Notes under the pieces: model-generated
What the model was told of the DNA's origin: nothing
The model's database searches: none
The model's input: the letters and a program-made list of their open reading frames with translations, nothing else
NCBI GenBank assembly: GCA_965235115.1
Contig: OZ249436.1
Location: 12,030,001-12,094,000, forward strand
Direction: 5' to 3'
Length of the DNA stretch: 64,000 nucleotides
Source of the DNA: Laetmonice hystrix
Lineage: Eukaryota
Part shown: piece after piece, positions 8,143 to 64,000 of the stretch
How positions within the stretch are numbered: position 1 is the first letter of the stretch
How the letters are laid out: each line of letters begins with the position of its first letter
Made by a program: the position numbers and the translations under genes

Positions 8143-24862
<16,720 letters not shown>

Positions 24863-29180: not shown

Positions 29181-29462
29181 ACGTGTTTAATTATCGTTGA
29201 TAACGTACATTTACCCATCCCTGCTTACACCCTAGCCTGGTCCCCAGGTCTATATTGACTGCTACGTATATCTGGTAGGCAGGGGACCAAGCTATGAACA
29301 CCCCTCTAGATTCTTTGTTTACTTTCAACAATTTATTTACATAAGAAGTTAATTTTGTGTCTAGAACTCCTTGGTTTCTTTCGAGAAAAAATAATCAACC
29401 GAGGGGGTTTATTGATAGCAACACGAGGAAAAACAGGATTTCAACCGTGCAAGATACAAGTT

Positions 29463-29540
29463 CCAAGCGTGGCCGAATGGGCAGAGACGCAGACCTATGA
29501 TCAGGACATCCACGGTTCGAATCCCACCAGCAGCGGCCAA
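29463..29540 (+). mobile_element. tRNA-derived SINE head / pseudo-tRNA
   Basis: A box TGGCCGAATGG (29470-29480) and B box GGTTCGAATCC (29514-29524); acceptor and anticodon stems do not pair well. Confidence 0.7.
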
Positions 29541-30349
29541 AAAGCATACTGGTCGCTGAGTCAGTAACTACTCAACCATGGCGGCGATATCATGGCTAAA
29601 ATAAAATTGAAATATCCACGTGGATTACTCTTTTAAATTACATACAGGGGTATTCCACGGGTCATATCCACGTGTATTCCACGGGAAATCCATGAGTTTT
29701 GCCTGCTGGGTATTAACCAAAATAATGGTTGTGATGACGGTGCATATTGGTCAACAAACGACCAATCCACATTTGGTCAATAGGGTAACAATATTGGATT
29801 GGTTATTTTGACCATGAGATTGATTGGACACATATCCATGCAGAAGATTGGTTGATTTTAACCAGGATCTTGGTTGTTTTAACCAATCTGTTTTTAGAGT
29901 GTACATGCAGAGAGCCCTCACTGTAGTGTTTGCTCCAGTATGACGCCAATCAACAAAATGCCAACAGATGGAAGTAGTCATATTACATGGTTTTGATAGA
30001 GAAATACTTCGATGCACCTTAAACAGTGAAGTCTGAGTGCTCTCTTTTCTATGAGCGAACGTACGTGACGAATACTATGCGAAAATTCTAGTAGCGAATT
30101 ACAATACCAGATATGCATACAAACATTGCAATAATGACCTAATATTCTGAAAACAGATGTATAGGCGTTTTAAATCGTTCCCTGACCAGTACAAGCTTAT
30201 TTGTGCACAGTGAAGAAGGTAGCAATTAATGACATTCATAGGAAAAATGTCAATTTGGCACTCTCAGCTTCTCAAAGCAGACAGAAACGTGGACATGTTG
30301 GAATAAAACGTGCTCTTTCTGTACACATACACCATAATTATTAATGTCA

Positions 30350-30700
30350 CCTCATTTCATGTTTCCATGCCTTTACTGTCTAGGAGGCAGGCGATACGTT
30401 TAGTCGATCATTTTCTGCCATCTAATCTGTTTCCCGTGCAGACTGTCTGTAAGCGTCCGACCACGTTATCAAGTAGTCCCAATGGCAATTTGCCGTAAAG
30501 GTTTAATTAACAATGGCAAATGAAACGGTCGTACGCCTTTTCTACATCAGATATCCCATCCCCAAGTATAAAGGTTACAGAAATGTTGCAGGCAAACGCC
30601 GCCGTGCTGTACTGAGGCGGCGCCTTCGACTACACTGCCACCTTCCGGCTTCCGATGGAATCTCCAAATTTTCCTGGCCGGACCGGGCGCCCGGAGGCAC
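30350..30700 (-). repeat. Inverted, diverged partial monomer of the 853-bp satellite
   Basis: tcatgtttccatgcc..., tttgccgtaaaggtttaattaacaatg, atcagatatcccatcccca and cactgccaccttccggc are reverse complements of array motifs. Confidence 0.88.
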
Positions 30701-30911
30701 AAGTCAGCGTATGCCCATAAAGTCCATGTGGCTTCACTTCCTAGGTCGAAAACCACTTCACCACCGCTTTAAAAAGCTATCTAATTCTCAGAATAATCAC
30801 CGGAACGTCTCCATATTCAGAGAAAGTGTTAGCCTCTAGGCCTGGTACAACATACTAAAAGATAAAGTTGATACCTCAAAAGCTGACTAACTTGGGCTGG
30901 AATCTGTTTTG

Positions 30912-32781
30912 CTTAAGCCTTTACGGCAAACATGGGTCTACCATACAACGTTGTCGGACGCTTACAGGTGGTCAGTAGGGGACACAGATTACATGGGAGT
31001 AAATGATGGACGAAACGGATGGCCTGCCTCTTGGACAATAAAGGCATGGAAACATGAATAATGAGGCGTCCCGATATTACTAGCTAAGGTTGTATAGAAG
31101 CAAACAGTAAAGTGAGGCCAAAGAGTACAGGGAGGCCAAACAGAACAGTGAGAAATCCCTACAAGGTACTGCCTTACCTAATACCCAAGCAAACACTGGA
31201 GTGAGGCCGAACAGTACCGTGAGGCCAAACAGTATACTGTGAGGCCAAGCACTATGAGAGGCCAAACAGTACACTGAGAAGTCTTATCGGCTGGCCTACT
31301 ACCCATTCAAACAGTTCAGTGAGGTAGTCGAAATGAAAGGTAGGCCTATAGGCGAGGGGCATCTAATGTTAAAATTTGGAGAAGATACTCAAATGGGAAG
31401 TAGACATATCACAACCATTTATCTCTAGCGAACGTACGAGACCTATACGGTTGACAGTTATACATCTGGCCTAACAATCATAATTTTGGGGGCGTAATTT
31501 CAATTTGACGTATCAAAAATGCAGCCATTTTTCGCTTATCATTGCATAAACCTGTCTCTTCCTTAAGCGCCATAGGTGCCTGCCAGCCCGGCCAGGTTTT
31601 AGGTGGTGATTACATCGGTAGCCGGAAGGTGGAAGTGCAGTCGGAGGGGACCGCTTCAGCACCGCACCCTGGTGTTTGCTTCCAACATCTCTGTCATTTG
31701 TTTCTACTTGGGGATGGGATATCTTATATAGAATGGCGAACAACGTCATTTGCCATTGTTAATTAAGTCTTTACGGCAAACATCCACTGGGTCTACCATA
31801 CAACGTTGTCGGACGCTTACAGGTGGTTAGTAGGGGACACAGATGACATGGGAGTAAATGATGGACGGAACGGATGGCCTGCCTCTTGGACAATAAAGGC
31901 ATGGAAACATGAAACATGAGGCGTCCCTATATTACTAGCTACAGTTGTATAAAAGCAAACAGTACAGTGAGGCCAAAGAGTACAGGGAGGCCAAACAGTA
32001 CAGTGAGAAATCCCTACAAGGTACTGCCTTGCCTAATACCCAAGCAAACACTACAGTGAGGCGGAACAGTACCGTGAGGCCAAACAGTATACTGTGAGAC
32101 CAAGCACTATCAGAGGCCAAACAGTACACTGAGAAGTCTTATCGCCTGGCCTACTACCCATGCAAACAGTTTAGTGAGGTAGTAGAAATGAACGGTATAG
32201 GCGAGGGGCATCTAATGTTAAAATTTGGAGAAGATACCCAAATGGGAAGGAGACATAGATCTATCACAACCATTTATCTCTAGCGAACGTACGAGACCTA
32301 TACGGTTGACAGTTATACATCTGGCCTAACAATCATAATTTTGGGGCCGTAATTTCAATTTGACGTATCAAAAATTCAGCCATTTTTCGCTTATTATTGC
32401 ATAAACCTGTCTCTCCCCTAAGCGCCATAGGTGCCTGCCAGCCCGGCCAGGTTTAAGGTGGTGATTACATCGGTGGCCGGAAGGTGGCAGTGCATTCGGA
32501 GAGGACCGCTTCAGTACCGCACCCTGGTGTTTGCTTGCAACATCTCTGTCATCTGTTTCTACTTGGAATATCTGATATAGAAAGGCGAACAAGGTCATTT
32601 GCCATTGTTAATTAAGTCGTTACGGCAAACATCCACTGGGTCTACCATACAACGTTGTCGGACGCTTACAGGTGGTCAGTAGGGGACACAGATTACATGG
32701 GAGTAAATGATGGACGAAACAGATGGCCTGCCTCTTGGACAATAAAGGCCTAATACCCAAGCAAACACTACAGTGGCCTGG
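30912..32781 (+). repeat. About 2 diverged edge monomers (about 855 bp) of the satellite
   Basis: ORF offsets 31080/31935 and 31513/32368 = 855; many substitutions relative to the core monomers. Confidence 0.9.
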
Positions 32782-35700
32782 GTATGGCCTGCCTCCTGGA
32801 CAATACAGGCATGGAAACATGAAACATGAAGCGTCCTTATACTACTGGCTACTGTCGTATAGAAGCAAACAGTACAGTGAGGCCAAAGAGTACAGGGAGG
32901 GCAAAGAGTACTGTGAGGAATCCCTGCTAACCTAGTACCCAAGCGAACACTACAGTGAGGCCGAGCGCTACAGTGAGGCTAAACAGCATACTGTCGGGCC
33001 AAGCAGTGTGGGAGGCCAAACAGTACAGTGAGGACTCCCTACATCTTACCGGCTGGCCTAGTACCAAAGCAAACAGTACAGTGAGAAAGTGGAAATGAAA
33101 GGTACAGACGAGGAGCATCTAATGTTAAAATTTTGAGAAAATACTGAAATGTGAAGTATACAGATCACAACCATTTCAGTATTTTCTCCAAAGCGAACGT
33201 ACGAGACCTATGCGGTTGACCGTTATACATCTGGCCTAAGAATCATAATTTTGGGGCCGTAGTTTCAATTTGACGTATCAAAAATGTAGCCAATTTTCGC
33301 TTATAATTGCATTAACCTGTCTTTCGCCTAAGGGTCACATGTGCCTGCCAGCCCGGCCAGGTATACGTGGTGATTCCACCGGTAGCCGGAAGGTGGCAGT
33401 GCAGTCGTAGCCGACGCTTCAGTACAGTACCCTGGCGTTTCCCTACAACATCTCTGTAATCTTTTTTTAGTTGGGGATGGGATATCTGATATAAGAAAGG
33501 CGTACAAGGTCATTTGCATTGTTAATTAAACCTTTACGGCAAACAGCTATTTAGACTACCTGACAACGTTGTCGGGCGCTAACAGATGGTCTGTAGTGGA
33601 CAGACATTAGATGGGAGTAAATGATAGACCAAACGTATGGCCTGCCTCCTGGACAATACAAGCATGGAAACATGAAACATGAAGCGTCCTTATACTACTG
33701 GCTACTGTCGTATAAAAGCAAACAGTACAGTGAGGCCAAAGAGTACAGGGAGGGCAAAGAGTACTGTGAGGAATCCCTGCTAACCTAGTACCCAAGCGAA
33801 CACTACAGTGAGGCCGAGCGCTACAGTGAGGCTAAACAGCATACTGTCGGGCCAAGCAGTGTGGGAGGCCAAACAGTACAGTGATACTCCCTACATCTTA
33901 CGGCAACCCTAGTACCAAAGCAAACAGTAGAGTGAGGCAGTAAAATTGAAAGGTACAGACGAGGAGCATCTAATGTTAAAATTTTGAGAAAATACTGAAA
34001 TGTGAAGTATACATATCACAACCATTTCAGTATTTTCTCCAAAGGGGACGTACGAGACCTATACGGTTGACCGTTATACATCTGACCTAAGAATAATAAT
34101 TTTTGGGCCGTAGTTTCAATTTGACGTATCAAAAATGAAACCATTTTTCGCTTATAATTGCATTAACCTGTCTTTCGCCTAAGGGTCGTAGGTGCCTGCT
34201 AGCACGGCCAGGTATACGTGGTGATTCCACCGGTAGCCGGAAGGTGGCAGTGCAGTGGCAGCCGACGCTTCAGTACAGTACCCTGGTGTTTCCCTGCAAC
34301 ATCTCTGTAATCTTTTTTTTAGTTGGGGATGGGATATCTGATATAAGAAAGGCGGACAAGGTCATTTGCATTGTTAATTAAACATTTACGGCAAACAGCT
34401 ATTTGGACTACATGACAACGTTGTCGGGCGCTTACAGTTGGTCTGTAGGGGACAGACATTTGATGGGAGTAAATGATAGAGCAAACGTATGGCCTGCCTC
34501 CTGGACAATACAGGCATGGAAACATGAAACATGAAGCGTTCTTATACTACTGGCTACTGTCGTATAGAAGCAAACAGTACAGTGAGGCCAAAGAGTACAG
34601 GGAGGGCAAAGAGTACTGTGAGGAATCCCTGCTAACCTAGTACCCAAGCGAACACTACAGTGAGGCCAAGCACTACAGTGAGGCTAAACAGCATACTGTC
34701 GGGCCAAGCAGTGTGGGAGGCCATACAGTACAGTGATACTCCCTACATCTTACGGCAACCCTAGTACCAAAGCAAACAGTACAGTGAGGCAGTGGAAATG
34801 AAAGGTACAGACGAGGAGCATCTAATGTTAAAATCTTTGAGAAAATACTGAAATGTGAAGTATACATATCACAACCATTTCAGTATTTTCTCCAAAGCGA
34901 ACGTACGAGACCTATACGGTTGACCGTTATACATCTGACCTAAGAATAATAATTTTTGGGCCGTAGTTTCAATTTGACGTATCAAAAATGAAACCATTTT
35001 TCGCTTATAATTGCATTAACCTGTCTTTCGCCTAAGGGGCGCAGGTGCCTGCCAGCACGGCCAGGTATACGTGGTGATTCCACCGGTAGCCGGAAGGTGG
35101 CAGTGCAGTCGCAGCCGACGCTTCAGTACAGTACCCTGGTGTTTCCCTGCAACATCTCTGTAATCTTTTTTTAGTTGGGGATGGGATATCTGAAATAAGA
35201 AAGGCGTACAAGGTCATTTGCATTGTTAATTAAACATTTACGGCAAACAGCTATTTGGACTACCTGACAACGTTGTCGGTCGCTTACAGATGGTCTGTAG
35301 GGGACAGACATATTAGATGGGAGTAAATGATAGAGCAAACGTATGGCCTGCCTCCTGGACAATACAGGCATGGAAACATGAAACATGAAGCGTCCTTATA
35401 CTACTGGCTACTGTCGTATAGAAGCAAACAGTACAGTGAGGCCAAAGAGTACAGGGAGGGCAAAGAGTACTGTGAGGAATCCCTGCTAACCTAGTACCCA
35501 AGCGAACACTACAGTGAGGCCAAGCACTACAGTGAGGCTAAACAGCATACTATCGGGCCAAGCAGTGTGGGAGGCCAAACAGTACAGTGAGGACTCCCTA
35601 CATCTTACCGGCTGGCCTAGTACCAATGCAAACAGTACAGTGAGAAAGTGGAAATGAAAGGTACAGACGAGGAGCATCTAATGTTAAAATTTTGAGAATA

Positions 35701-38700
35701 TACTGAAATGTGAAGTATACAGATCACAACCATTTTAGTATTTTCTCCAAAGCGAACGTACGAGACCTATACGGTTGACCGTTATACATCTGGCCTAAGA
35801 ATCATAATTTTGGGGCCGTAGTTTCAATTTGACGTATCAAAAATGTAGCCAATTTTCGCTTATAATTGCATTAACCTGTCTTTCGCCTAAGGGTCACATG
35901 TGCCTGCCAGCCCGGCCAGGTATACGTGGTGATTCCACCGGTAGCCGGAAGGTGGCAGTGCAGTCGTAGCCGACGCTTCAGTACAGTACCCTGGCGTTTC
36001 CCTACAACATCTCTGTAATCTTTTTTTAGTTGGGGATGGGATATCTGATATAAGAAAGGCGTACACGGTCATTTGCATTGTTAATTAAACCTTTACGGCA
36101 AACAGCTATTTAGACTACCTGACAACGTTGTCGGGCGCTAACAGATGGTCTGTAGTGGACAGACATTAGATGGGAGTAAATGATAGACCAAACGTATGGC
36201 CTGCCTCCTGGACAATACAAGCATGGAAACATGAAACATGAAGCGTCCTTATACTACTGGCTACTGTCGTAAAAAAGCAAACAGTACAGTGAGGCCAAAG
36301 AGTACAGGGAGGGCAAAGAGTACTGTGAGGAATCCCTGCTAACCTAGTACCCAAGCGAACACTACAGTGAGGCCGAGCGCTACAGTGAGGCTAAACAGCA
36401 TACTGTCGGGCCAAGCAGTGTGGGAGGCCAAACAGTACAGTGATACTCCCTACATCTTACGGCAACCCTAGTACCAAAGCAAACAGTAGAGTGAGGCAGT
36501 GAAAATGAAAGGTACAGACGAGGAGCATCTAATGTTAAAATTTTGAGAAAATACTGAAATGTGAAGTATACATATCACAACCATTTCAGTATTTTCTCCA
36601 AAGCGAACGTACGAGACCTATACGGTTGACCGTTATACATCTGACCTAAGAATAATAATTTTTGGGCCGTAGTTTCAATTTGACGTATCAAAAATGAAAC
36701 CATTTTTCGCTTATAATTGCATTAACCTGTCTTTCGCCTAAGGGTCGCAGGTGCCTGCCAGCACGGCCAGGTATACGTGGTGATTCCACCGGTAGCCGGA
36801 AGGTGGCAGTGCAGTCGCAGCCGACGCTTCAGTACAGTACCCTGGTGTTTCCCTGCAACATCTCTGTAATCTTTTTTTAGTTGGGGATGGGATATCTGAA
36901 ATAAGAAAGGCGTACAAGGTCATTTGCATTGTTAATTAAACATTTACGGCAAACAGCTATTTGGACTACCTGACAACGTTGTCGGTCGCTTACAGATGGT
37001 CTGTAGGGGACAGACATATTAGATGGGAGTAAATGATAGAGCAAACGTATGGCCTGCCTCCTGGACAATACAGGCATGGAAACATGAAACATGAAGCGTC
37101 CTTATACTACTGGCTACTGTCGTATAGAAGCAAACAGTACAGTGAGGCCAAAGAGTACAGGGAGGGCAAAGAGTACTGTGAGGAATCCCTGCTAACCTAG
37201 TACCCAAGCGAACACTACAGTGAGGCCAAGCACTACAGTGAGGCTAAACAGCATACTATCGGGCCAAGCAGTGTGGGAGGCCAAACAGTACAGTGAGGAC
37301 TCCCTACATCTTACCGGCTGGCCTAGTACCAATGCAAACAGTACAGTGAGAAAGTGGAAATGAAAGGTACAGACGAGGAGCATCTAATGTTAAAATTTTG
37401 AGAATATACTGAAATGTGAAGTATACAGATCACAACCATTTTAGTATTTTCTCCAAAGCGAACGTACGAGACCTATACGGTTGACCGTTATACATCTGGC
37501 CTAAGAATCATAATTTTGGGGCCGTAGTTTCAATTTGACGTATCAAAAATGTAGCCAATTTTCGCTTATAATTGCATTAACCTGTCTTTCGCCTAAGGGT
37601 CACATGTGCCTGCCAGCCCGGCCAGGTATACGTGGTGATTCCACCGGTAGCCGGAAGGTGGCAGTGCAGTCGTAGCCGACGCTTCAGTACAGTACCCTGG
37701 CGTTTCCCTACAACATCTCTGTAATCTTTTTTTAGTTGGGGATGGGATATCTGATATAAGAAAGGCGTACACGGTCATTTGCATTGTTAATTAAACCTTT
37801 ACGGCAAACAGCTATTTAGACTACCTGACAACGTTGTCGGGCGCTAACAGATGGTCTGTAGTGGACAGACATTAGATGGGAGTAAATGATAGACCAAACG
37901 TATGGCCTGCCTCCTGGACAATACAAGCATGGAAACATGAAACATGAAGCGTCCTTATACTACTGGCTACTGTCGTAAAAAAGCAAACAGTACAGTGAGG
38001 CCAAAGAGTACAGGGAGGGCAAAGAGTACTGTGAGGAATCCCTGCTAACCTAGTACCCAAGCGAACACTACAGTGAGGCCGAGCGCTACAGTGAGGCTAA
38101 ACAGCATACTGTCGGGCCAAGCAGTGTGGGAGGCCAAACAGTACAGTGATACTCCCTACATCTTACGGCAACCCTAGTACCAAAGCAAACAGTAGAGTGA
38201 GGCAGTGAAAATGAAAGGTACAGACGAGGAGCATCTAATGTTAAAATTTTGAGAAAATACTGAAATGTGAAGTATACATATCACAACCATTTCAGTATTT
38301 TCTCCAAAGCGAACGTACGAGACCTATACGGTTGACCGTTATACATCTGACCTAAGAATAATAATTTTTGGGCCGTAGTTTCAATTTGACGTATCAAAAA
38401 TGAAACCATTTTTCGCTTATAATTGCATTAACCTGTCTTTCGCCTAAGGGTCGCAGGTGCCTGCCAGCACGGCCAGGTATACGTGGTGATTCCACCGGTA
38501 GCCGGAAGGTGGCAGTGCAGTCGCAGCCGACGCTTCAGTACAGTACCCTGGTGTTTCCCTGCAACATCTCTGTAATCTTTTTTTAGTTGGGGATGGGATA
38601 TCTGAAATAAGAAAGGCGTACAAGGTCATTTGCATTGTTAATTAAACATTTACGGCAAACAGCTATTTGGACTACCTGACAACGTTGTCGGTCGCTTACA

Positions 38701-41700
38701 GATGGTCTGTAGGGGACAGACATATTAGATGGGAGTAAATGATAGAGCAAACGTATGGCCTGCCTCCTGGACAATACAGGCATGGAAACATGAAACATGA
38801 AGCGTCCTTATACTACTGGCTACTGTCGTATAGAAGCAAACAGTACAGTGAGGCCAAAGAGTACAGGGAGGGCAAAGAGTACTGTGAGGAATCCCTGCTA
38901 ACCTAGTACCCAAGCGAACACTACAGTGAGGCCAAGCACTACAGTGAGGCTAAACAGCATACTATCGGGCCAAGCAGTGTGGGAGGCCAAACAGTACAGT
39001 GAGGACTCCCTACATCTTACCGGCTGGCCTAGTACCAATGCAAACAGTACAGTGAGAAAGTGGAAATGAAAGGTACAGACGAGGAGCATCTAATGTTAAA
39101 ATTTTGAGAATATACTGAAATGTGAAGTATACAGATCACAACCATTTTAGTATTTTCTCCAAAGCGAACGTACGAGACCTATACGGTTGACCGTTATACA
39201 TCTGGCCTAAGAATCATAATTTTGGGGCCGTAGTTTCAATTTGACGTATCAAAAATGTAGCCAATTTTCGCTTATAATTGCATTAACCTGTCTTTCGCCT
39301 AAGGGTCACATGTGCCTGCCAGCCCGGCCAGGTATACGTGGTGATTCCACCGGTAGCCGGAAGGTGGCAGTGCAGTCGCAGCCGACGCTTCAGTACAGTA
39401 CCCTGGTGTTTCCCTGCAACATCTCTGTAATCTTTTTTTTAGTTGGGGATGGGATATCTGATATAAGAAAGGCGGACAAGGTCATTTGCATTGTTAATTA
39501 AACATTTACGGCAAACAGCTATTTGGACTACCTGACAACGTTGTCGGGCGCTTACAGATGGTCTGTAGGGGACAGACATTTGATGGGAGTAAATGATAGA
39601 CCAAACGTATGGCCTGCCTCCTGGACAATACAAGCATGGAAACATGAAACATGAAGCGTCCTTATACTACTGGCTACTGTCGTAAAAAAGCAAACAGTAC
39701 AGTGAGGCCAAAGAGTACAGGGAGGGCAAAGAGTACTGTGAGGAATCCCTGCTAACCTAGTACCCAAGCGAACACTACAGTGAGGCCGAGCGCTACAGTG
39801 AGGCTAAACAGCATACTGTCGGGCCAAGCAGTGTGGGAGGCCAAACAGTACAGTGATACTCCCTACATCTTACGGCAACCCTAGTACCAAAGCAAACAGT
39901 AGAGTGAGGCAGTGAAAATGAAAGGTACAGACGAGGAGCATCTAATGTTAAAATTTTGAGAAAATACTGAAATGTGAAGTATACATATCACAACCATTTC
40001 AGTATTTTCTCCAAAGCGAACGTACGAGGCCTATACGGTTGACCGTTATACATCTGACCTAAGAATAATAATTTTTGGGCCGTAGTTTCAATTTGACGTA
40101 TCAAAAATGAAACCACTTTTCGCTTATAATTGCATTAACCTGTCTTTCGCCTAAGGGTCGCAGGTGCCTGCCAGCACGGCCAGGTATACGTGGTGATTCC
40201 ACCGGTAGCCGGAAGGTGGCAGTGCAGTGGCAGCCGACGCTTCAGTACAGTACCCTGGTGTTTTCCTGCAACATCTCTGTAATCTTTTTTTTAGTTGGGG
40301 ATGGGATATCTGATATAAGAAAGGCGTACAAGGTCATTTGCATTGTTAATTAAACCTTTACGGCAAACAGCTATTTGGACTACCTGACAACGTTGTCGGG
40401 CACTTACAGTTGGTCTGTAGGGGACAGACATTTGATGGGAGTAAATGATAGAGCAAACGTATGGCCTGCCTCCTGGACAATACAGGCATGGAAACATGAA
40501 ACATGAAGCGTTCTTATACTACTGGCTACTGTCGTATAGAAGCAAACAGTACAGTGAGGCCAAAGAGTACAGGGAGGGCAAAGAGTACTGTGAGGAATCC
40601 CTGCTAACCTAGTACCCAAGCGAACACTACAGTGAGGCCAAGCACTACAGTGAGGCTAAACAGCATACTGTCGGGCCAAACAGTGTGGGAGGCCAAACAG
40701 TACAGTGAGGACTCCCTACATCTTACCGGCTGGCCTAGTACCAATGCAAACAGTACAGTGAGAAAGTGGAAATGAAAGGTACAGACGAGGAGCATCTAAT
40801 GTTAAAATTTTGAGAATATACTGAAATGTGAAGTATACAGATCACAACCATTTCAGTATTTTCTCCAAAGCGAACGTACGAGACCTATGCGGTTGACCGT
40901 TATACATCTGGCCTAAGAATCATAATTTTGGGGCCGTAGTTTCAATTTGACGTATCAAAAATGTAGCCAATTTTCGCTTATAATTGCATTAACCTGTCTT
41001 TCGCCTAAGGGTCACATGTGCCTGCCAGCCCGGCCAGGTATACGTGGTGATTCCACCGGTAGCCGGAAGGTGGCAGTGCAGTCGTAGCCGACGCTTCAGT
41101 ACAGTACCCTGGCGTTTCCCTACAACATCTCTGTAATCTTTTTTTAGTTGGGGATGGGATATCTGATATAAGAAAGGCGTACAAGGTCATTTGCATTGTT
41201 AATTAAACCTTTACGGCAAACAGCTATTTAGACTACCTGACAACGTTGTCGGGCGCTAACAGATGGTCTGTAGTGGACAGACATTAGATGGGAGTAAATG
41301 ATAGACCAAACGTATGGCCTGCCTCCTGGACAATACAGGCATGGAAACATGAAACATGAAGCGTCCTTATACTACTGGCTACTGTCGTATAGAAGCAGAC
41401 AGTACAGTGAGGCCAAAGAGTACAGGGAGGGCAAAGAGTACTGTGAGGAATCCCTGCTAACCTAGTACCCAAGCGAAATCTACAGTGAGGCCAAGCACTA
41501 CAGTGAGGCTAAACAGCATACTATCGGGCCAAGCAGTGTGGGAGGCCAAACAATGCAGTGATACTCCCTACATCTTACGGCAACCCTAGTACCAAAGCAA
41601 AGAGTACAGTGAGGCAGTGGAAATGAAAGGTACAGAGGAGGAGCATCTACTGTTAAAATTTTGAGAAAATACTGAAATGTGAAGTATACATATCACAACC

Positions 41701-50700: not shown

Positions 50701-53700
50701 CTCCTGGACAATACAGGCATGGAAACATGAAACATGAAGCGTCCTTATACTACTGGCTACTGTCGTATAGAAGCAAACAGTACAGTGAGGCCAAAGAGTA
50801 CAGGGAGGGCAAAGAGTACTGTGAGGAATCCCTGCTAACCTAGTACCCAAGCGAACACTACAGTGAGGCCAAGCACTACAGTGAGGCTAAACAGCATACT
50901 ATCGGGCCAAGCAGTGTGGGAGGCCAAACAGTACAGTGAGGACTCCCTACATCTTACCGGCTGGCCTAGTACCAATGCAAACAGTACAGTGAGAAAGTGG
51001 AAATGAAAGGTACAGACGAGGAGCATCTAATGTTAAAATTTTGAGAATATACTGAAATGTGAAGTATACAGATCACAACCATTTTAGTATTTTCTCCAAA
51101 GCGAACGTACGAGACCTATACGGTTGACCGTTATACATCTGGCCTAAGAATCATAATTTTGGGGCCGTAGTTTCAATTTGACGTATCAAAAATGTAGCCA
51201 ATTTTCGCTTATAATTGCATTAACCTGTCTTTCGCCTAAGGGTCACATGTGCCTGCCAGCCCGGCCAGGTATACGTGGTGATTCCACCGGTAGCCGGAAG
51301 GTGGCAGTGCAGTCGCAGCCGACGCTTCAGTACAGTACCCTGGTGTTTCCCTGCAACATCTCTGTAATCTTTTTTTTAGTTGGGGATGGGATATCTGATA
51401 TAAGAAAGGCGGACAAGGTCATTTGCATTGTTAATTAAACATTTACGGCAAACAGCTATTTGGACTACCTGACAACGTTGTCGGGCGCTTACAGATGGTC
51501 TGTAGGGGACAGACATTTGATGGGAGTAAATGATAGACCAAACGTATGGCCTGCCTCCTGGACAATACAAGCATGGAAACATGAAACATGAAGCGTCCTT
51601 ATACTACTGGCTACTGTCGTAAAAAAGCAAACAGTACAGTGAGGCCAAAGAGTACAGGGAGGGCAAAGAGTACTGTGAGGAATCCCTGCTAACCTAGTAC
51701 CCAAGCGAACACTACAGTGAGGCCGAGCGCTACAGTGAGGCTAAACAGCATACTGTCGGGCCAAGCAGTGTGGGAGGCCAAACAGTACAGTGATACTCCC
51801 TACATCTTACGGCAACCCTAGTACCAAAGCAAACAGTAGAGTGAGGCAGTGAAAATGAAAGGTACAGACGAGGAGCATCTAATGTTAAAATTTTGAGAAA
51901 ATACTGAAATGTGAAGTATACATATCACAACCATTTCAGTATTTTCTCCAAAGCGAACGTACGAGGCCTATACGGTTGACCGTTATACATCTGACCTAAG
52001 AATAATAATTTTTGGGCCGTAGTTTCAATTTGACGTATCAAAAATGAAACCACTTTTCGCTTATAATTGCATTAACCTGTCTTTCGCCTAAGGGTCGCAG
52101 GTGCCTGCCAGCACGGCCAGGTATACGTGGTGATTCCACCGGTAGCCGGAATGTGGCAGTGCAGTGGCAGCCGACGCTTCAGTACAGTACCCTGGTGTTT
52201 TCCTGCAACATCTCTGTAATCTTTTTTTTAGTTGGGGATGGGATATCTGATATAAGAAAGGCGTACAAGGTCATTTGCATTGTTAATTAAACCTTTACGG
52301 CAAACAGCTATTTGGACTACCTGACAACGTTGTCGGGCACTTACAGTTGGTCTGTAGGGGACAGACATTTGATGGGAGTAAATGATAGAGCAAACGTATG
52401 GCCTGCCTCCTGGACAATACAGGCATGGAAACATGAAACATGAAGCGTTCTTATACTACTGGCTACTGTCGTATAGAAGCAAACAGTACAGTGAGGCCAA
52501 AGAGTACAGGGAGGGCAAAGAGTACTGTGAGGAATCCCTGCTAACCTAGTACCCAAGCGAACACTACAGTGAGGCCAAGCACTACAGTGAGGCTAAACAG
52601 CATACTGTCGGGCCAAACAGTGTGGGAGGCCAAACAGTACAGTGAGGACTCCCTACATCTTACCGGCTGGCCTAGTACCAATGCAAACAGTACAGTGAGA
52701 AAGTGGAAATGAAAGGTACAGACGAGGAGCATCTAATGTTAAAATTTTGAGAATATACTGAAATGTGAAGTATACAGATCACAACCATTTCAGTATTTTC
52801 TCCAAAGCGAACGTACGAGACCTATGCGGTTGACCGTTATACATCTGGCCTAAGAATCATAATTTTGGGGCCGTAGTTTCAATTTGACGTATCAAAAATG
52901 TAGCCAATTTTCGCTTATAATTGCATTAACCTGTCTTTCGCCTAAGGGTCACATGTGCCTGCCAGCCCGGCCAGGTATACGTGGTGATTCCACCGGTAGC
53001 CGGAAGGTGGCAGTGCAGTCGTAGCCGACGCTTCAGTACAGTACCCTGGCGTTTCCCTACAACATCTCTGTAATCTTTTTTTAGTTGGGGATGGGATATC
53101 TGATATAAGAAAGGCGTACAAGGTCATTTGCATTGTTAATTAAACCTTTACGGCAAACAGCTATTTAGACTACCTGACAACGTTGTCGGGCGCTAACAGA
53201 TGGTCTGTAGTGGACAGACATTAGATGGGAGTAAATGATAGACCAAACGTATGGCCTGCCTCCTGGACAATACAGGCATGGAAACATGAAACATGAAGCG
53301 TCCTTATACTACTGGCTACTGTCGTATAGAAGCAGACAGTACAGTGAGGCCAAAGAGTACAGGGAGGGCAAAGAGTACTGTGAGGAATCCCTGCTAACCT
53401 AGTACCCAAGCGAAATCTACAGTGAGGCCAAGCACTACAGTGAGGCTAAACAGCATACTATCGGGCCAAGCAGTGTGGGAGGCCAAACAATGCAGTGATA
53501 CTCCCTACATCTTACGGCAACCCTAGTACCAAAGCAAAGAGTACAGTGAGGCAGTGGAAATGAAAGGTACAGAGGAGGAGCATCTACTGTTAAAATTTTG
53601 AGAAAATACTGAAATGTGAAGTATACATATCACAACCATTTCAGTATTTTCTCCAAAGCGAACGTACGAGACCTATACGGTTGACCGTTATACATCTGGC

Positions 53701-56700
53701 CTAAGATTAATAATTTTTGGGCCGTAGTTTCAATTTGACGTATCAAAAATGTAGCCAATTTTCGCTTATAATTGCATTAACCTGTCTTTCGCCTAAGGGT
53801 CACATGTGCCTGCCAGCCCGGCCAGGTATACGTGGTGATTCCACCGGTAGCCGGAAGGTGGCAGTGCAGTCGCAGCCGACGCTTCAGTACAGTACCCTGG
53901 TGTTTCCCTGCAGCATCTCTGTAATCTTTTTTTAGTTGGGGATGGAATATCTGGTATAAGAAAGGCGTACAAGGTCATTTGCATTGTTAATTAAACCTTT
54001 ACGGCAAACAGCTATTTAGACTACCTGACAACGTTGTCGGGCGCTAACAGATGGTCTGTAGTGACCAGACATTAGATGGGATTAAATCATAGACCAAACG
54101 TATGGCCTGCCTCCTGGACAATACAAGCATGGAAACATGAAACATGAAGCGTCCTTATACTACTGGCTACTGTCGTATAGAAGCAAACAGTACAGTGAGG
54201 CCAAAGAGTACATGGAGGGCAAAGAGTACTGTGAGGAATCCCTGCTAACCTAGTACCCAAGCGAACACTACAGTGAGGCCAAGCACTACAGTAAGGCTAA
54301 ACAGCATACTGTCGGGCCAAGCAGTGTGGGAGGCCATACAGTACAGTGATACTCCCTACATCTTACGGCAACCCTAGTACCAAAGCAAACAGTACAGTGA
54401 GGCAGTGGAAATGAAAGGTACAGACGAGGAGCATCTAATGTTAAAATTTTGAGAAAATACTGAAATGTGAAGTATACATATCACAACCATTTCAGTATTT
54501 TCTCCAAAGCGAACGTACGAGACCTATACGGTTGACCGTTATACATCTGACCTAAGAATAATAATTTTTGGGCCGTAGTTTCAATTTGACGTATCAAAAA
54601 TGAAACCATTTTTCGCTTATAATTGCATTAACCTGTCTTTCGCCTAAGGGTCGCAGGTGCCTGCCAGCACGGCCAGGTATACGTGGTGATTCCACCGGTA
54701 GCCGGAAGGTGGCAGTGCAGTCGCAGCCGACGCTTCAGTACAGTACCCTGGTGTTTCCCTGCAACATCTCTGTAATCTTTTTTTAGTTGGGGATGGGATA
54801 TCTGAAATAAGAAAGGCGTACAAGGTCATTTGCATTGTTAATTAAACATTTACGGCAAACAGCTATTTGGACTACCTGACAACGTTGTCGGTCGCTTACA
54901 GATGGTCTGTAGGGGACAGACATATTAGATGGGAGTAAATGATAGAGCAAACGTATGGCCTGCCTCCTGGACAATACAGGCATGGAAACATGAAACATGA
55001 AGCGTCCTTATACTACTGGCTACTGTCGTATAGAAGCAAACAGTACAGTGAGGCCAAAGAGTACAGGGAGGGCAAAGAGTACTGTGAGGAATCCCTGCTA
55101 ACCTAGTACCCAAGCGAACACTACAGTGAGGCCAAGCACTACAGTGAGGCTAAACAGCATACTATCGGGCCAAGCAGTGTGGGAGGCCAAACAGTACAGT
55201 GAGGACTCCCTACATCTTACCGGCTGGCCTAGTACCAATGCAAACAGTACAGTGAGAAAGTGGAAATGAAAGGTACAGACGAGGAGCATCTAATGTTAAA
55301 ATTTTGAGAATATACTGAAATGTGAAGTATACAGATCACAACCATTTTAGTATTTTCTCCAAAGCGAACGTACGAGACCTATACGGTTGACCGTTATACA
55401 TCTGGCCTAAGAATCATAATTTTGGGGCCGTAGTTTCAATTTGACGTATCAAAAATGTAGCCAATTTTCGCTTATAATTGCATTAACCTGTCTTTCGCCT
55501 AAGGGTCACATGTGCCTGCCAGCCCGGCCAGGTATACGTGGTGATTCCACCGGTAGCCGGAAGGTGGCAGTGCAGTCGTAGCCGACGCTTCAGTACAGTA
55601 CCCTGGCGTTTCCCTACAACATCTCTGTAATCTTTTTTTAGTTGGGGATGGGATATCTGATATAAGAAAGGCGTACACGGTCATTTGCATTGTTAATTAA
55701 ACCTTTACGGCAAACAGCTATTTAGACTACCTGACAACGTTGTCGGGCGCTAACAGATGGTCTGTAGTGGACAGACATTAGATGGGAGTAAATGATAGAC
55801 CAAACGTATGGCCTGCCTCCTGGACAATACAAGCATGGAAACATGAAACATGAAGCGTCCTTATACTACTGGCTACTGTCGTAAAAAAGCAAACAGTACA
55901 GTGAGGCCAAAGAGTACAGGGAGGGCAAAGAGTACTGTGAGGAATCCCTGCTAACCTAGTACCCAAGCGAACACTACAGTGAGGCCGAGCGCTACAGTGA
56001 GGCTAAACAGCATACTGTCGGGCCAAGCAGTGTGGGAGGCCAAACAGTACAGTGATACTCCCTACATCTTACGGCAACCCTAGTACCAAAGCAAACAGTA
56101 GAGTGAGGCAGTGAAAATGAAAGGTACAGACGAGGAGCATCTAATGTTAAAATTTTGAGAAAATACTGAAATGTGAAGTATACATATCACAACCATTTCA
56201 GTATTTTCTCCAAAGCGAACGTACGAGACCTATACGGTTGACCGTTATACATCTGACCTAAGAATAATAATTTTTGGGCCGTAGTTTCAATTTGACGTAT
56301 CAAAAATGAAACCATTTTTCGCTTATAATTGCATTAACCTGTCTTTCGCCTAAGGGTCGCAGGTGCCTGCCAGCACGGCCAGGTATACGTGGTGATTCCA
56401 CCGGTAGCCGGAAGGTGGCAGTGCAGTCGCAGCCGACGCTTCAGTACAGTACCCTGGTGTTTCCCTGCAACATCTCTGTAATCTTTTTTTAGTTGGGGAT
56501 GGGATATCTGAAATAAGAAAGGCGTACAAGGTCATTTGCATTGTTAATTAAACATTTACGGCAAACAGCTATTTGGACTACCTGACAACGTTGTCGGTCG
56601 CTTACAGATGGTCTGTAGGGGACAGACATATTAGATGGGAGTAAATGATAGAGCAAACGTATGGCCTGCCTCCTGGACAATACAGGCATGGAAACATGAA

Positions 56701-59700
56701 ACATGAAGCGTCCTTATACTACTGGCTACTGTCGTATAGAAGCAAACAGTACAGTGAGGCCAAAGAGTACAGGGAGGGCAAAGAGTACTGTGAGGAATCC
56801 CTGCTAACCTAGTACCCAAGCGAACACTACAGTGAGGCCAAGCACTACAGTGAGGCTAAACAGCATACTATCGGGCCAAGCAGTGTGGGAGGCCAAACAG
56901 TACAGTGAGGACTCCCTACATCTTACCGGCTGGCCTAGTACCAATGCAAACAGTACAGTGAGAAAGTGGAAATGAAAGGTACAGACGAGGAGCATCTAAT
57001 GTTAAAATTTTGAGAATATACTGAAATGTGAAGTATACAGATCACAACCATTTTAGTATTTTCTCCAAAGCGAACGTACGAGACCTATACGGTTGACCGT
57101 TATACATCTGGCCTAAGAATCATAATTTTGGGGCCGTAGTTTCAATTTGACGTATCAAAAATGTAGCCAATTTTCGCTTATAATTGCATTAACCTGTCTT
57201 TCGCCTAAGGGTCACATGTGCCTGCCAGCCCGGCCAGGTATACGTGGTGATTCCACCGGTAGCCGGAAGGTGGCAGTGCAGTCGCAGCCGACGCTTCAGT
57301 ACAGTACCCTGGTGTTTCCCTGCAACATCTCTGTAATCTTTTTTTTAGTTGGGGATGGGATATCTGATATAAGAAAGGCGGACAAGGTCATTTGCATTGT
57401 TAATTAAACATTTACGGCAAACAGCTATTTGGACTACCTGACAACGTTGTCGGGCGCTTACAGATGGTCTGTAGGGGACAGACATTTGATGGGAGTAAAT
57501 GATAGACCAAACGTATGGCCTGCCTCCTGGACAATACAAGCATGGAAACATGAAACATGAAGCGTCCTTATACTACTGGCTACTGTCGTAAAAAAGCAAA
57601 CAGTACAGTGAGGCCAAAGAGTACAGGGAGGGCAAAGAGTACTGTGAGGAATCCCTGCTAACCTAGTACCCAAGCGAACACTACAGTGAGGCCGAGCGCT
57701 ACAGTGAGGCTAAACAGCATACTGTCGGGCCAAGCAGTGTGGGAGGCCAAACAGTACAGTGATACTCCCTACATCTTACGGCAACCCTAGTACCAAAGCA
57801 AACAGTAGAGTGAGGCAGTGAAAATGAAAGGTACAGACGAGGAGCATCTAATGTTAAAATTTTGAGAATATACTGAAATGTGAAGTATACAGATCACAAC
57901 CATTTCAGTATTTTCTCCAAAGCGAACGTACGAGACCTATGCGGTTGACCGTTATACATCTGGCCTAAGAATCATAATTTTGGGGCCGTAGTTTCAATTT
58001 GACGTATCAAAAATGTAGCCAATTTTCGCTTATAATTGCATTAACCTGTCTTTCGCCTAAGGGTCACATGTGCCTGCCAGCCCGGCCAGGTATACGTGGT
58101 GATTCCACCGGTAGCCGGAAGGTGGCAGTGCAGTCGTAGCCGACGCTTCAGTACAGTACCCTGGCGTTTCCCTACAACATCTCTGTAATCTTTTTTTAGT
58201 TGGGGATGGGATATCTGATATAAGAAAGGCGTACAAGGTCATTTGCATTGTTAATTAAACCTTTACGGCAAACAGCTATTTAGACTACCTGACAACGTTG
58301 TCGGGCGCTAACAGATGGTCTGTAGTGGACAGACATTAGATGGGAGTAAATGATAGACCAAACGTATGGCCTGCCTCCTGGACAATACAGGCATGGAAAC
58401 ATGAAACATGAAGCGTCCTTATACTACTGGCTACTGTCGTATAGAAGCAGACAGTACAGTGAGGCCAAAGAGTACAGGGAGGGCAAAGAGTACTGTGAGG
58501 AATCCCTGCTAACCTAGTACCCAAGCGAAATCTACAGTGAGGCCAAGCACTACAGTGAGGCTAAACAGCATACTATCGGGCCAAGCAGTGTGGGAGGCCA
58601 AACAATGCAGTGATACTCCCTACATCTTACGGCAACCCTAGTACCAAAGCAAAGAGTACAGTGAGGCAGTGGAAATGAAAGGTACAGAGGAGGAGCATCT
58701 ACTGTTAAAATTTTGAGAAAATACTGAAATGTGAAGTATACATATCACAACCATTTCAGTATTTTCTCCAAAGCGAACGTACGAGACCTATACGGTTGAC
58801 CGTTATACATCTGGCCTAAGATTAATAATTTTTGGGCCGTAGTTTCAATTTGACGTATCAAAAATGTAGCCAATTTTCGCTTATAATTGCATTAACCTGT
58901 CTTTCGCCTAAGGGTCACATGTGCCTGCCAGCCCGGCCAGGTATACGTGGTGATTCCACCGGTAGCCGGAAGGTGGCAGTGCAGTCGCAGCCGACGCTTC
59001 AGTACAGTACCCTGGTGTTTCCCTGCAGCATCTCTGTAATCTTTTTTTAGTTGGGGATGGAATATCTGGTATAAGAAAGGCGTACAAGGTCATTTGCATT
59101 GTTAATTAAACCTTTACGGCAAACAGCTATTTAGACTACCTGACAACGTTGTCGGGCGCTAACAGATGGTCTGTAGTGACCAGACATTAGATGGGATTAA
59201 ATCATAGACCAAACGTATGGCCTGCCTCCTGGACAATACAAGCATGGAAACATGAAACATGAAGCGTCCTTATACTACTGGCTACTGTCGTATAGAAGCA
59301 AACAGTACAGTGAGGCCAAAGAGTACATGGAGGGCAAAGAGTACTGTGAGGAATCCCTGCTAACCTAGTACCCAAGCGAACACTACAGTGAGGCCAAGCA
59401 CTACAGTAAGGCTAAACAGCATACTGTCGGGCCAAGCAGTGTGGGAGGCCATACAGTACAGTGATACTCCCTATATCTTACGGCAACCCTAGTACCAAAG
59501 CAAACAGTACAGTGAGGCAGTGGAAATGAAAGGTACAGACGAGGAGCATCTAATGTTAAAATTTTGAGAAAATACTGAAATGTGAAGTATACATATCACA
59601 ACCATTTCAGTATTTTCTCCAAAGCGAACGTACGAGACCTATACGGTTGACCGTTATACATCTGACCTAAGAATAATAATTTTTGGGCCGTAGTTTCAAT

Positions 59701-62700
59701 TTGACGTATCAAAAATGAAACCATTTTTCGCTTATAATTACATTAACCTGTCTTTCGCCTAAGGGTCGCAGGTGCCTGCTAGCACGGCCAGGTATACGTG
59801 GTGATTCCACCGGTAGCCGGAAGGTGGCAGTGCAGTCGCAGCCGACGCTTCAGTACAGTACCCTGGTGTTTCCCTGCAACATCTCTGTAATCTTTTTTTA
59901 GTTGGGGATGGGATATCTGAAATAAGAAAGGCGTACAAGGTCATTTGCATTGTTAATTAAACATTTACGGCAAACAGCTATTTGGACTACCTGACAACGT
60001 TGTCGGGCGCTTACAGATGGTCTGTAGGGGACAGACATATTAGATGGGAGTAAATGATAGAGCAAACGTATGGCCTGCCTCCTGGACAATACAGGCATGG
60101 AAACATGAAACATGAAACATGAAGCGTCCTTATACTACTGGCTACTGTCGTATAGAAGCAAACAGTACAGTGAGGCCAAAGAGTACAGGGAGGGCAAAGA
60201 GTACTGTGAGGAATCCCTGCTAACCTAGTACCCAAGCGAACACTACAGTGAGGCCAAGCACTACAGTGAGGCTAAACAGCATACTATCGGGCCAAGCAGT
60301 GTGGGAGGCCAAACAATGCAGTGATACTCCCTACATCTTACGGCAACCCTAGTACCAAAGCAAAGAGTACAGTGAGGCAGTGGAAATGAAAGGTACAGAG
60401 GAGGAGCATCTACTGTTAAAATTTTGAGAAAATACTGAAATGTGAAGTATACATATCACAACCATTTCAGTATTTTCTCCAAAGCGAACGTACGAGACCT
60501 ATACGGTTGACCGTTATACATCTGGCCTAAGATTAATAATTTTTGGGCCGTAGTTTCAATTTGACGTATCAAAAATGTAGCCAATTTTCGCTTATAATTG
60601 CATTAACCTGTCTTTCGCCTAAGGGTCACATGTGCCTGCCAGCCCGGCCAGGTATACGTGGTGATTCCACCGGTAGCCGGAAGGTGGCAGTGCAGTCGCA
60701 GCCGACGCTTCAGTACAGTACCCTGGTGTTTCCCTGCAGCATCTCTGTAATCTTTTTTTAGTTGGGGATGGAATATCTGGTATAAGAAAGGCGTACAAGG
60801 TCATTTGCATTGTTAATTAAACCTTTACGGCAAACAGCTATTTAGACTACCTGACAACGTTGTCGGGCGCTAACAGATGGTCTGTAGTGACCAGACATTA
60901 GATGGGATTAAATCATAGACCAAACGTATGGCCTGCCTCCTGGACAATACAAGCATGGAAACATGAAACATGAAGCGTCCTTATACTACTGGCTACTGTC
61001 GTATAGAAGCAAACAGTACAGTGAGGCCAAAGAGTACATGGAGGGCAAAGAGTACTGTGAGGAATCCCTGCTAACCTAGTACCCAAGCGAACACTACAGT
61101 GAGGCCAAGCACTACAGTAAGGCTAAACAGCATACTGTCGGGCCAAGCAGTGTGGGAGGCCATACAGTACAGTGATACTCCCTACATCTTACGGCCACCC
61201 TAGTACCAAAGCAAACAGTACAGTGAGGCAGTGGAAATGAAAGGTACAGACGAGGAGCATCTAATGTTAAAATTTTGAGAAAATACTGAAATGTGAAGTA
61301 TACATATCACAACCATTTCAGTATTTTCTCCAAAGCGAACGTACGAGACCTATACGGTTGACCGTTATACATCTGACCTAAGAATAATAATTTTTGGGCC
61401 GTAGTTTCAATTTGACGTATCAAAAATGAAACCATTTTTCGCTTATAATTACATTAACCTGTCTTTCGCCTAAGGGTCGCAGGTGCCTGCTAGCACGGCC
61501 AGGTATACGTGGTGATTCCACCGGTAGCCGGAAGGTGGCAGTGCAGTCGCAGCCGACGCTTCAGTACAGTACCCTGGTGTTTCCCTGCAACATCTCTGTA
61601 ATCTTTTTTTAGTTGGGGATGGGATATCTGAAATAAGAAAGGCGTACAAGGTCATTTGCATTGTTAATTAAACATTTACGGCAAACAGCTATTTGGACTA
61701 CCTGACAACGTTGTCGGGCGCTTACAGATAGTCTATAGGGGACAGACATATTAGATGGGAGTAAATGATAGAGCAAACGTATGGCCTGCCTCCTGGACAA
61801 TACAGGCATGGAAACATGAAACATGAAGCGTCCTTATACTACTGGCTACTGTCGTATAGAAGCAAACAGTACAGTGAGGCCAAAGAGTACAGGGAGGGCA
61901 AAGAGTACTGTGAGGAATCCCTGCTAACCTAGTACCCAAGCGAACACTACAGTGAGGCCAAGCACTACAGTGAGGCTAAACAGCATACTATCGGGCCAAG
62001 CAGTGTGGGAGGCCAAACAATGCAGTGATACTCCCTACATCTTACGGCAACCCTAGTACCAAAGCAAAGAGTACAGTGAGGCAGTGGAAATGAAAGGTAC
62101 AGAGGAGGAGCATCTAATGTTAAAATTTTGAGAAAATACTGAAATGTGAAGTATACATATCACAACCATTTCAGTATTTTCTCCAAAGCGAACGTACGAG
62201 ACCTATACGGTTGACCGTTATACATCTGACCTAAGAATAATAATTTTTGGGCCGTAGTTTCAATTTGACGTATCAAAAATGAAACCACTTTTCGCTTATA
62301 ATTGCATTAACCTGTCTTTCGCCTAAGGGTCGCAGGTGCCTGCCAGCACGGCCAGGTATACGTGGTGACTCCACCGGTAGCCGGAAGGTGGCAGTGCAGT
62401 GGCAGCCGACGCTTCAGTACAGTACCCTGGTGTTTCCCTGCAACATCCCTGTAATCTTCTTTTAGTTGGGGATGGGATATCTGATATAAGAAAGGCGTAC
62501 AAGGTCATTTGCATTGTTAATTAAACCTTTACGGCAAACAGCTATTTGGACTACCTGACAACGTTGTCGGGCGCTTACAGTTGGTCTGTAGGGGACAGAC
62601 ATTTGATGGGAGTAAATGATAGAGCAAACGTATGGCCTGCCTCCTGGACAATACAGGCATGGAAACATGAAACATGAAGCGTCCTTATACTACTGGCTAC

Positions 62701-64000
62701 TGTCGTATAGAAGCAAACAGTACAGTGAGGCCAAAGAGTACAGGGAGGGCAAAGAGTACTGTGAGGAATCCCTGCTAACCTAGTACCCAAGCGAACACTA
62801 CAGTGAGGCCAAGCACTACAGTGAGGCTAAACAGCATACTGTCGGGCCAAGCAGTGTGAGAGGCCAAACAGTACAGTGATACTCCCTACATGTAACGGCA
62901 ACCCTAGTACCAAAGCAAACAGTACAGTGAGTCAGTGAAAATGAAAGGTACAGACGAGGAGCATCTAATGTTAAAATCTTTGAGAAAATACTGAAATGTG
63001 AAGTATACATATCACAACCATTTCAGTATTTTCTCCAAAGCGAACGTACGAGACCTATACGGTTGACCGTTATACATCTGACCTAAGAATAATAATTTTT
63101 GGGCCGTAGTTTCAATTTGACGTATCAAAAATGAAACCATTTTTCGCTTATAATTGCATTAACCTGTCTTTCGCCTAAGGGTCGTAGGTGCCTGCCAGCA
63201 CGGCCAGGTATACGTGGTGATTCCACCGGTAGCCGGAAGGTGGCAGTGCAGTCGCAGCCGACGCTTCAGTACAGTACCCTGGTGTTTCCCTGCAACATCT
63301 CTGTAATCTTTTTTTAGTTGGGGATGGGATATCTGAAATAAGAAAGGCGTACAAGGTCATTTGCATTGTTAATTAAACATTTACGGCAAACAGCTATTTG
63401 GACTACCTGACAACGTTGTCGGGCGCTTACAGATGGTCTGTAGGGGACAGACATATTAGATGGGAGTAAATGATAGAGCAAACGTATGGCCTGCCTCCTG
63501 GACAATACAGGCATGGAAACATGAAACATGAAGCGTCCTTATACTACTGGCTACTGTCGTATAGAAGCAAACAGTACAGTGAGGCCAAAGAGTACAGGGA
63601 GGGCAAAGAGTACTGTGAGGAATCCCTGCTAACCTAGTACCCAAGCGAACACTACAGTGAGGCCAAGCACTACAGTGAGGCTAAACAGCATACTATCGGG
63701 CCAAGCAGTGTGGGAGGCCAAACAATGCAGTGATACTCCCTACATCTTACGGCAACCCTAGTACCAAAGCAAAGAGTACAGTGAGGCAGTGGAAATGAAA
63801 GGTACAGAGGAGGAGCATCTAATGTTAAAATTTTGAGAAAATACTGAAATGTGAAGTATACATATCACAACCATTTCAGTATTTTCTCCAAAGCGAACGT
63901 ACGAGACCTATACGGTTGACCGTTATACATCTGACCTAACAATAATAATTTTTGGGCCGTAGTTTCAATTTGACGTATCAAAAATGAAACCACTTTTCGC
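32782..64000 (+). repeat. Homogeneous about 853-bp tandem macrosatellite (about 36.5 monomers, runs off the window) with higher-order repeats
   Basis: Near-identical ORF-track entries recur every 851-855 bp; the monomer contains about 18-bp subrepeats (aaacagtacagtgaggcc). Confidence 0.98.

Follow-up and report, generated by a model that had tools for sequence, protein, structure and literature searches.

Centromeric arrays are reported to combine a higher-order structure with diverged edges (bioRxiv 10.64898/2026.09.17.752431; PMC4053949), and in the first of these sources 103 of 263 families lie between 201 bp and 5 kb. Among human satellites, the alpha-satellite higher-order repeat (HOR) arrays of chromosomes 18, 20 and X are described as enriched in CTCF motifs and as showing no significant binding by DiMeLo-seq, and the same source gives 80 CTCF motifs per Mb for gamma satellite and 5,023 for teucer, at thresholds that differ from ours (bioRxiv 10.64898/2026.07.18.739380); human cohesin is reported as enriched at pericentromeres and not at HOR arrays (PMC10692335). 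Macrosatellite units range from 2 kb to over 12 kb (PMC3218863), and DXZ4, with 12-100 units (PMC3287207), is described as having a 3-kb unit of 61-65% GC in which the CTCF site forms an island of conservation (PMC3218863, PMC6125249). We have examined a 64,000-nucleotide window from the annelid Laetmonice hystrix (assembly GCA_965235115.1, contig OZ249436.1, positions 12,030,001 to 12,094,000), the right half of which is a tandem array with a CTCF-like motif in each monomer. A preliminary description took this array for a DXZ4-like macrosatellite whose co-oriented sites, with one reversed site at the edge, form a domain boundary beside the gene WDFY3. We consider it rather probable that the window instead takes in the left-hand border of a major satellite array with a (peri)centromeric role, in which the motif was multiplied and co-oriented as a by-product.

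The array begins at a TTAA (30913-30916) and continues past the window end at 64000, and is thus at least 33 kb long. Divided at a fixed anchor, it resolves into 39 monomers, of which the last is partial, and these fall into 22 distinct types; the monomer is about 852 bp, with a range of 849-914 bp across the array. Its length, its homogeneity, its higher-order repeats and its diverged edges are features expected of centromeric satellites. At a lag of 11,937 the two copies of its largest higher-order unit agree without a mismatch over 4,821 and 6,909 bases; the pair may alternatively stem from a duplication in the recent past or from the same DNA having been assembled twice. Centromeric HOR arrays of the alpha-satellite type likewise consist of monomers arranged head to tail, with dimers and larger units; they too are very abundant, have diverged edges and lie beside ordinary genes. 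The 852-bp monomer with its 18-bp subrepeats, and a 14-mer seen only twice, set this array apart from them.

Abundance was gauged from the contigs of four sequencing runs (X1-X4) of one sample in one study, aligned over 24250-31770. In X1-X3 the unique flank has a depth of 33-76, and at 31425, within a monomer, the summed contig depth is 76,000-145,000 times that of single-copy DNA. Summed contig depth is not a copy number; divided by the worst-case unitig overlap of 31-fold, it gives our own rough floor of about 2,500-4,700 copies. It is this abundance, together with the higher-order structure and the diverged edges, as in centromeric arrays, that points to a (peri)centromeric role.

A search of both strands of the window for the 17-mer GCCGGAAGGTGGCAGTG, with up to two mismatches, returned 39 matches (0.00 expected from shuffles), 38 of them on the plus strand and one on the minus strand (30633-30649); the motif does therefore recur once per monomer with a single reversed copy, as had been described. 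The details given at the time also hold: single mismatches are present in the copies of the first edge monomer (C>A, 31621) and of one core monomer (G>T, 52152), that of the second edge monomer at 32476 (reported at about 32475) has none, and the quoted 19-mer reads as given and deviates at one position from the consensus with which it was compared. All bit scores in this study rest on a count matrix for CTCF taken to be JASPAR MA0139.1. By this matrix the 19-mer of the core monomers reaches 17.6 bits out of 28.3 (site p 5.9e-7) and stands above the shuffled background, as the proposed CTCF match would predict: of 5000 dinucleotide shuffles of a monomer, 14 score at least as high, and so do 5 of 5000 matrices whose columns were permuted. 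The bases upstream of the motif fit in part, by eye and unscored, the consensus of the module for zinc fingers 9-11. Against real background, 2 of the 35 non-array tiles of 855 bp contain an equal or better site, and the 29.2 kb of unique left flank holds four sites of at least 15 bits, where shuffles give 0.16. Judging from these tiles and flank sites, the motif is a good CTCF match, but such matches are fairly common in this genome. Its recurrence follows from the array itself: it is in each monomer because each monomer has nearly every base, and where monomers follow one another head to tail the copies necessarily share one orientation. The approximately 36 core copies are not independent, the core monomers being 94-100% identical. 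A hairpin at the motif was considered and rejected (fold z -1.1, 0.6 and -0.1).

Within the window, the highest-scoring CTCF-like sites lie outside the array, with 21.4 bits at 11429-11447, followed by 20.7 and 16.7 bits at 25884-25941. The latter two, at 25923 and 25884 respectively, are 39 bp apart, and the first of them outscores the satellite motif. From their scores, these sites appear to be better candidates for real CTCF sites than the motif in the array. Each unit of a 53-bp minisatellite in a WDFY3 intron (15029-15171) has a plus-strand CTCF-like site (12.7, 12.9 and 10.4 bits), and the minisatellite terminates in a 17.4-bit site on the minus strand; it is a second example of a repeat multiplying a CTCF-like motif.

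Conservation within the array does not clearly single out the motif. Compared between edge and core over the whole monomer, the 17-bp motif has 1 change where 4.3 are expected (P 0.07; 118 of 839 alignment windows are as good) and the 19-bp motif has 2 where 4.8 are expected (P 0.14; 174 of 837), these and the following P values being uncorrected and the motif limits having been picked after the data were seen. Among the 18 core types one of the 19 motif columns is variable (2.0 expected; 386 of 837 windows are as good), and invariant runs of 23, 21 and 19 bases are located outside the motif. The most conserved block of the monomer is the one around TTAATTAA, a word found 38 times in the array, and not the CTCF-like motif; it has 20-21 invariant reference columns, with one single-base indel left uncounted. 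Three of the four changes observed in the motif lower its score (by 2.4, 3.2 and 8.5 bits) and one raises it (by 1.7), so that score-lowering changes, one of them by 8.5 bits, are tolerated. Metagenomes were scanned for the motif with its context and for the TTAATTAA block; neither scan returned a locus, and hence no relatives for a comparison across species. In the core monomers a one-base deletion in this block creates ATTTGCAT, which we take to be an octamer-like word, and which is absent from the edge and reversed copies.

The single minus-strand match has a different origin from the others. It lies in an inverted module that is as heavily diverged as first noted, with its motif core intact, and that occupies its own long branch relative to the monomers. 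This motif-bearing module of about 340 bp is common to the satellite monomer and to a second repeat family. Diverged contigs cross the junction at 30350 (30265-30478 in X1-X3, with 35 differing letters or about 16%; an X4 contig, 30259-30581, also spans it), and immediately to the left of the module, at 30254-30310, the depth is 113-1662 times single-copy in X1; because of these spanning contigs and the high depth, the junction is best regarded as part of a second multi-copy family and not as a unique inversion. A match to the 18-bp subrepeat of the monomer at 29905-29946 suggests that the family copy extends to about 29905. For the spacer at 30682-30912 the best score against the monomer, 33.5, hardly differs from the shuffle maximum of 33, so that no homology is clear there; 29970-30163 gave only short matches to the monomer (E 0.05-0.9), which were left uncounted. 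Contigs of X1-X3 with a depth of about 580-1,110 reach 30666 and then return to 30633, so the motif region may be duplicated in some members of the family.

Since the reversed copy belongs to this second family, the divergent pair of sites that had been proposed as a boundary is probably incidental, and its orientation beside the array may be chance. Nor is the arrangement a clean one, because further CTCF-like sites are present in the edge monomers at 30969 (plus strand, 14.9 bits), 31660 (minus strand, 12.9 bits) and 32515 (minus strand, 13.1 bits) and in the transitional monomer at 32673 (plus strand, 14.9 bits), and the additional plus-strand sites at 25884 and 25923 point toward the array.

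The centromeric role and the order of events that we infer are as follows. A module of about 340 bp, already bearing the CTCF-like 19-mer, would have become part of the 852-bp monomer, and the same module would persist in the more diverged multi-copy family. The monomer would then have been amplified and homogenised through unequal exchange and conversion, giving rise to dimers, 6- and 8-mers and the 14-mer, with the outermost monomers left behind as diverged edge units. The array would serve as (peri)centromeric chromatin, and the reversed site would be one copy of the related family that happens to adjoin it. The motif would then be largely a passenger. It is conceivable, although we would not expect it, that CTCF occupies some of the copies, most plausibly at the edge, without this being the purpose of the array.

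Several observations weigh against a centromeric satellite with a passenger motif. By its very high depth in X1-X3 the monomer is a candidate for the most abundant tandem repeat of the genome; in run X4 its depth is only about 7-fold. This run, which bears no label, leaves the final coding exons uncovered and has a contig that ends at 29167, shortly past an AATAAA (29154). It may derive from RNA, which contigs cannot show, and it is not used as evidence. The consensus C at 31633 accounts for 1,072,070 of 1,072,225 in summed depth (X1), all high-information positions of the matrix are satisfied by the satellite 19-mer, and the enrichment of the left flank in CTCF-type sites is what an active CTCF in this species would lead one to expect. 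Transitions in the core affect 2 of 58 CpG bases and 25 of 326 other C/G bases, and with no CpG decay, methylation may not block the site. In the comparison with the reversed copy, over 329 shared columns and with end gaps counted as changes, which inflates the expectation, the 17-bp core shows a single change against an expectation of 7.6 (P 0.004; 7 of 313 alignment windows do as well). The 19-mer shows 3 (8.5 expected; P 0.03; 22 of 311), and the core taken as 14 bp shows 1 (6.2 expected; P 0.014; 13 of 316). The excess conservation that the preliminary description led one to expect is thus seen against the reversed copy, and is not clearly seen over the whole monomer; this appears to be a hint of constraint at depth and not a conservation island in the manner of DXZ4. 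The matrix score, the conservation relative to the reversed copy, the absence of CpG decay and the WDFY3 stop codon 6 kb away would all suit a (peri)centromeric satellite with a functional CTCF motif, for which one predicts binding of thousands of co-oriented monomers and cohesin stalling or nucleosome phasing, and in which the edge would protect WDFY3 from heterochromatin, a role that has been proposed for gamma satellite in humans. We regard this as unlikely, given that the whole-monomer comparison shows no conservation peak at the motif and that in the annelid Dimorphilus CTCF is reported as the most abundant open-chromatin motif, mainly at promoters and without directional arrangement (PMC7854359). 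Somewhat more doubtful is the stronger form of the proposal, a major centromeric satellite built round a selected CTCF site, with thousands of co-oriented predicted sites stopping cohesin and shielding genes; if true, it would be the reverse of the human HOR arrays, with their lack of cohesin enrichment, and an architectural role for CTCF in a spiralian satellite that seems undescribed in the literature searched.

The other explanations change the nature of the repeat or of the motif. An origin as a tandem array of a non-autonomous transposon, either a TTAA-targeting element of the Kolobok/piggyBac type or a Helentron/HINE, with the reversed copy as a separate insertion, would explain why the array starts exactly at TTAA, why TTAATTAA lies within the best-conserved block of each monomer and why a related multi-copy family has the same module; a module shared with a more diverged family is also a feature of spiralian transposon-related satellites such as those described as Helentron-borne in oyster (PMC7492417) and as KolobokP multimers (PMC9587614). 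Kolobok and KolobokP elements are characterised by a TTAA target, 5'-RR...YY-3' ends and terminal inverted repeats (TIRs) of 11-18 bp (PMC9587614), and HINE/Helentron elements by subterminal inverted repeats (subTIRs) of 12-15 bp, a 3' palindrome and a T-rich target (PMC4067079). Units cut at TTAA here start with GC, GT or AC and end in TG, and have no TIR; an inverted-repeat scan limited to arms within 120 bases yielded no pair of subTIRs accompanied by a 3' palindrome, a minus-strand self-BLAST of the monomers gave no long inverted pair, no LTDR-INT layout or HINE ends were found, and the inverted copy runs across the TTAA instead of ending there. A Kolobok tandem was accordingly rejected on its termini despite the TTAA, and a transposon tandem in general seems to us improbable. 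The DXZ4-like, locus-specific macrosatellite originally proposed, with divergent CTCF sites as a domain boundary beside WDFY3, we judge to be highly improbable. It shares with DXZ4 and ICCE a tandem array with co-oriented CTCF motifs, here once per monomer, of good matrix score and with one reversed site at the edge, but a monomer of 849-914 bp falls short of the macrosatellite unit, a rough floor of about 2,500 copies is far over the 12-100 units of DXZ4 and the tens of copies, at one or two loci, of such macrosatellites, and a GC content of 0.453 is neither GC- nor CpG-rich. The higher-order structure, the derivation of the reversed site from another repeat family, the interleaving of both site orientations at the edge and the extension of conservation beyond the motif all point the same way. 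Least credible, and scarcely worth entertaining on present evidence, is that the conserved element is the site of another factor, an ETS-type protein at CCGGAAG or a binder of the TTAATTAA block, and that its resemblance to CTCF is incidental. The block is indeed better conserved than the CTCF-like motif, and the invariant run GCCGGAAGGTGG includes CCGGAAG; the match nevertheless covers the full CTCF core, and the base that follows CCGGAAG is a G, a poor fit (by unscanned comparison) to the ETS consensus.

Table 1. Coordinates of features in the 64,000-nucleotide window
Feature	Position	Strand	Remarks
3' part of WDFY3/ALFY (PH-BEACH, BEACH, WD40 and FYVE exons)	17787..24862	+	Stop codon at 24860-24862
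Two single-copy CTCF-like sites, 3' of the WDFY3 stop and pointing at the array	25884..25941	+	16.7 and 20.7 bits; single-copy depth
Copy of the second, related multi-copy repeat family	29905..30912	-	Putative limits; has its own flanks
Inverted module homologous to the monomer	30350..30686	-	78-81% identity (alignment)
Reversed CTCF-like motif	30633..30651	-	15.2 bits
Two diverged edge monomers	30913..32619	+	14-18% from core, 5% from each other
Transitional 914-bp monomer	32620..33533	+	Edge-type start, internal duplication of ~60 bp, remainder core-type
CTCF-like 19-mer, example copy	33383..33401	+	One per monomer, ~1,150 sites per Mb
Best-conserved block (GTCATTTGC[C]ATTGTTAATTAA), example copy	33509..33529	+	Common to core, edge and inverted copies
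Homogeneous core array	33534..64000	+	36 monomers (last partial), 851-860 bp, 0-5.5% apart
18-bp subrepeats (CAAAGAGTACAGTGAGGC type), example copy	33719..33771	+	Internal to the monomer
Hairpin with 20-nt arms, example copy	34836..34895	.	In core monomers; degenerate in edge monomers
14-monomer higher-order unit, 11,937 bp, present twice	35315..59061	+	A/B dimers, 6- and 8-mers; from the order of monomer types

The novelty of this locus lies in a candidate centromere-type satellite that bears a CTCF motif, satellites with CTCF motifs being already known in humans (the active alpha-satellite HORs of chromosomes 18, 20 and X, gamma satellite and teucer). As in those, the motif has been multiplied by amplification; the density given in Table 1 is, however, that of predicted sites in an invertebrate array. 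In the literature covered by our searches we found no study joining CTCF, satellite DNA and annelids, and those listed on CTCF motifs in centromeric satellite monomers were human by title or abstract. The window marks a candidate centromere edge and a candidate centromeric satellite in an annelid, a group with little centromere data; in the matched text of a 325-genome centromere atlas the word 'annelid' is absent (bioRxiv 10.64898/2026.09.17.752431). Should CTCF bind the monomers, the array would offer a simple, high-signal test of the architectural role of spiralian CTCF, which reviews are reported to call open (PMC10658182), and also of whether satellite expansion can titrate CTCF; should it not bind, this would be an ordinary satellite.

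The core monomer has a GC content of 0.453 and 30 CpGs, an observed/expected ratio of 0.69. Its hairpin has a fold z of -8.4 in one core copy and -0.8 in one edge copy, and these two folds suggest that the hairpin may have become perfect within the expanding lineage. A tandem non-coding RNA gene (small nuclear RNA, 5S, transfer RNA (tRNA) or ribozyme) was considered for the repeat and rejected, the best Rfam match having an E of 0.48, under the gathering score; ARAGORN likewise called no tRNA within the array.

The neighbouring gene is WDFY3. Pfam matches were obtained in 4 of the 10 frames scanned, the last exon translates into the stop codon, which is about 6 kb from the array, and the named homologues of the region are WD repeat and FYVE domain proteins. 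For one WD40 exon of 80 residues the closest named homologue is from the annelid Paralvinella (78%), followed by the snail Lymnaea (73%), which bears out the bilaterian host that the preliminary description assumed; annelids are reported to possess CTCF orthologues (PMC10658182, PMC7854359).

Between the gene and the array, single-copy contigs end at 29242, and a stack of other multi-copy elements at 29233-29900, with a small inverted repeat at 29233-29294, separates the unique flank from the array. Within it a tRNA-like head is present at 29470-29525, in a region of 10^4 depth; it has stretches that we take to be A- and B-box-like, and is probably a fragment of a short interspersed nuclear element. 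Elsewhere in the window, ARAGORN calls a tRNA-Val(aac) at 3760-3848 on the minus strand, which may be spurious. Two further repeats lie in WDFY3 itself: a 162-bp tandem duplication (20708-21025) covers the splice acceptor and the start of an exon, and a 23-bp minisatellite of 12.3 copies (23854-24137) starts just within an intron, past the donor.

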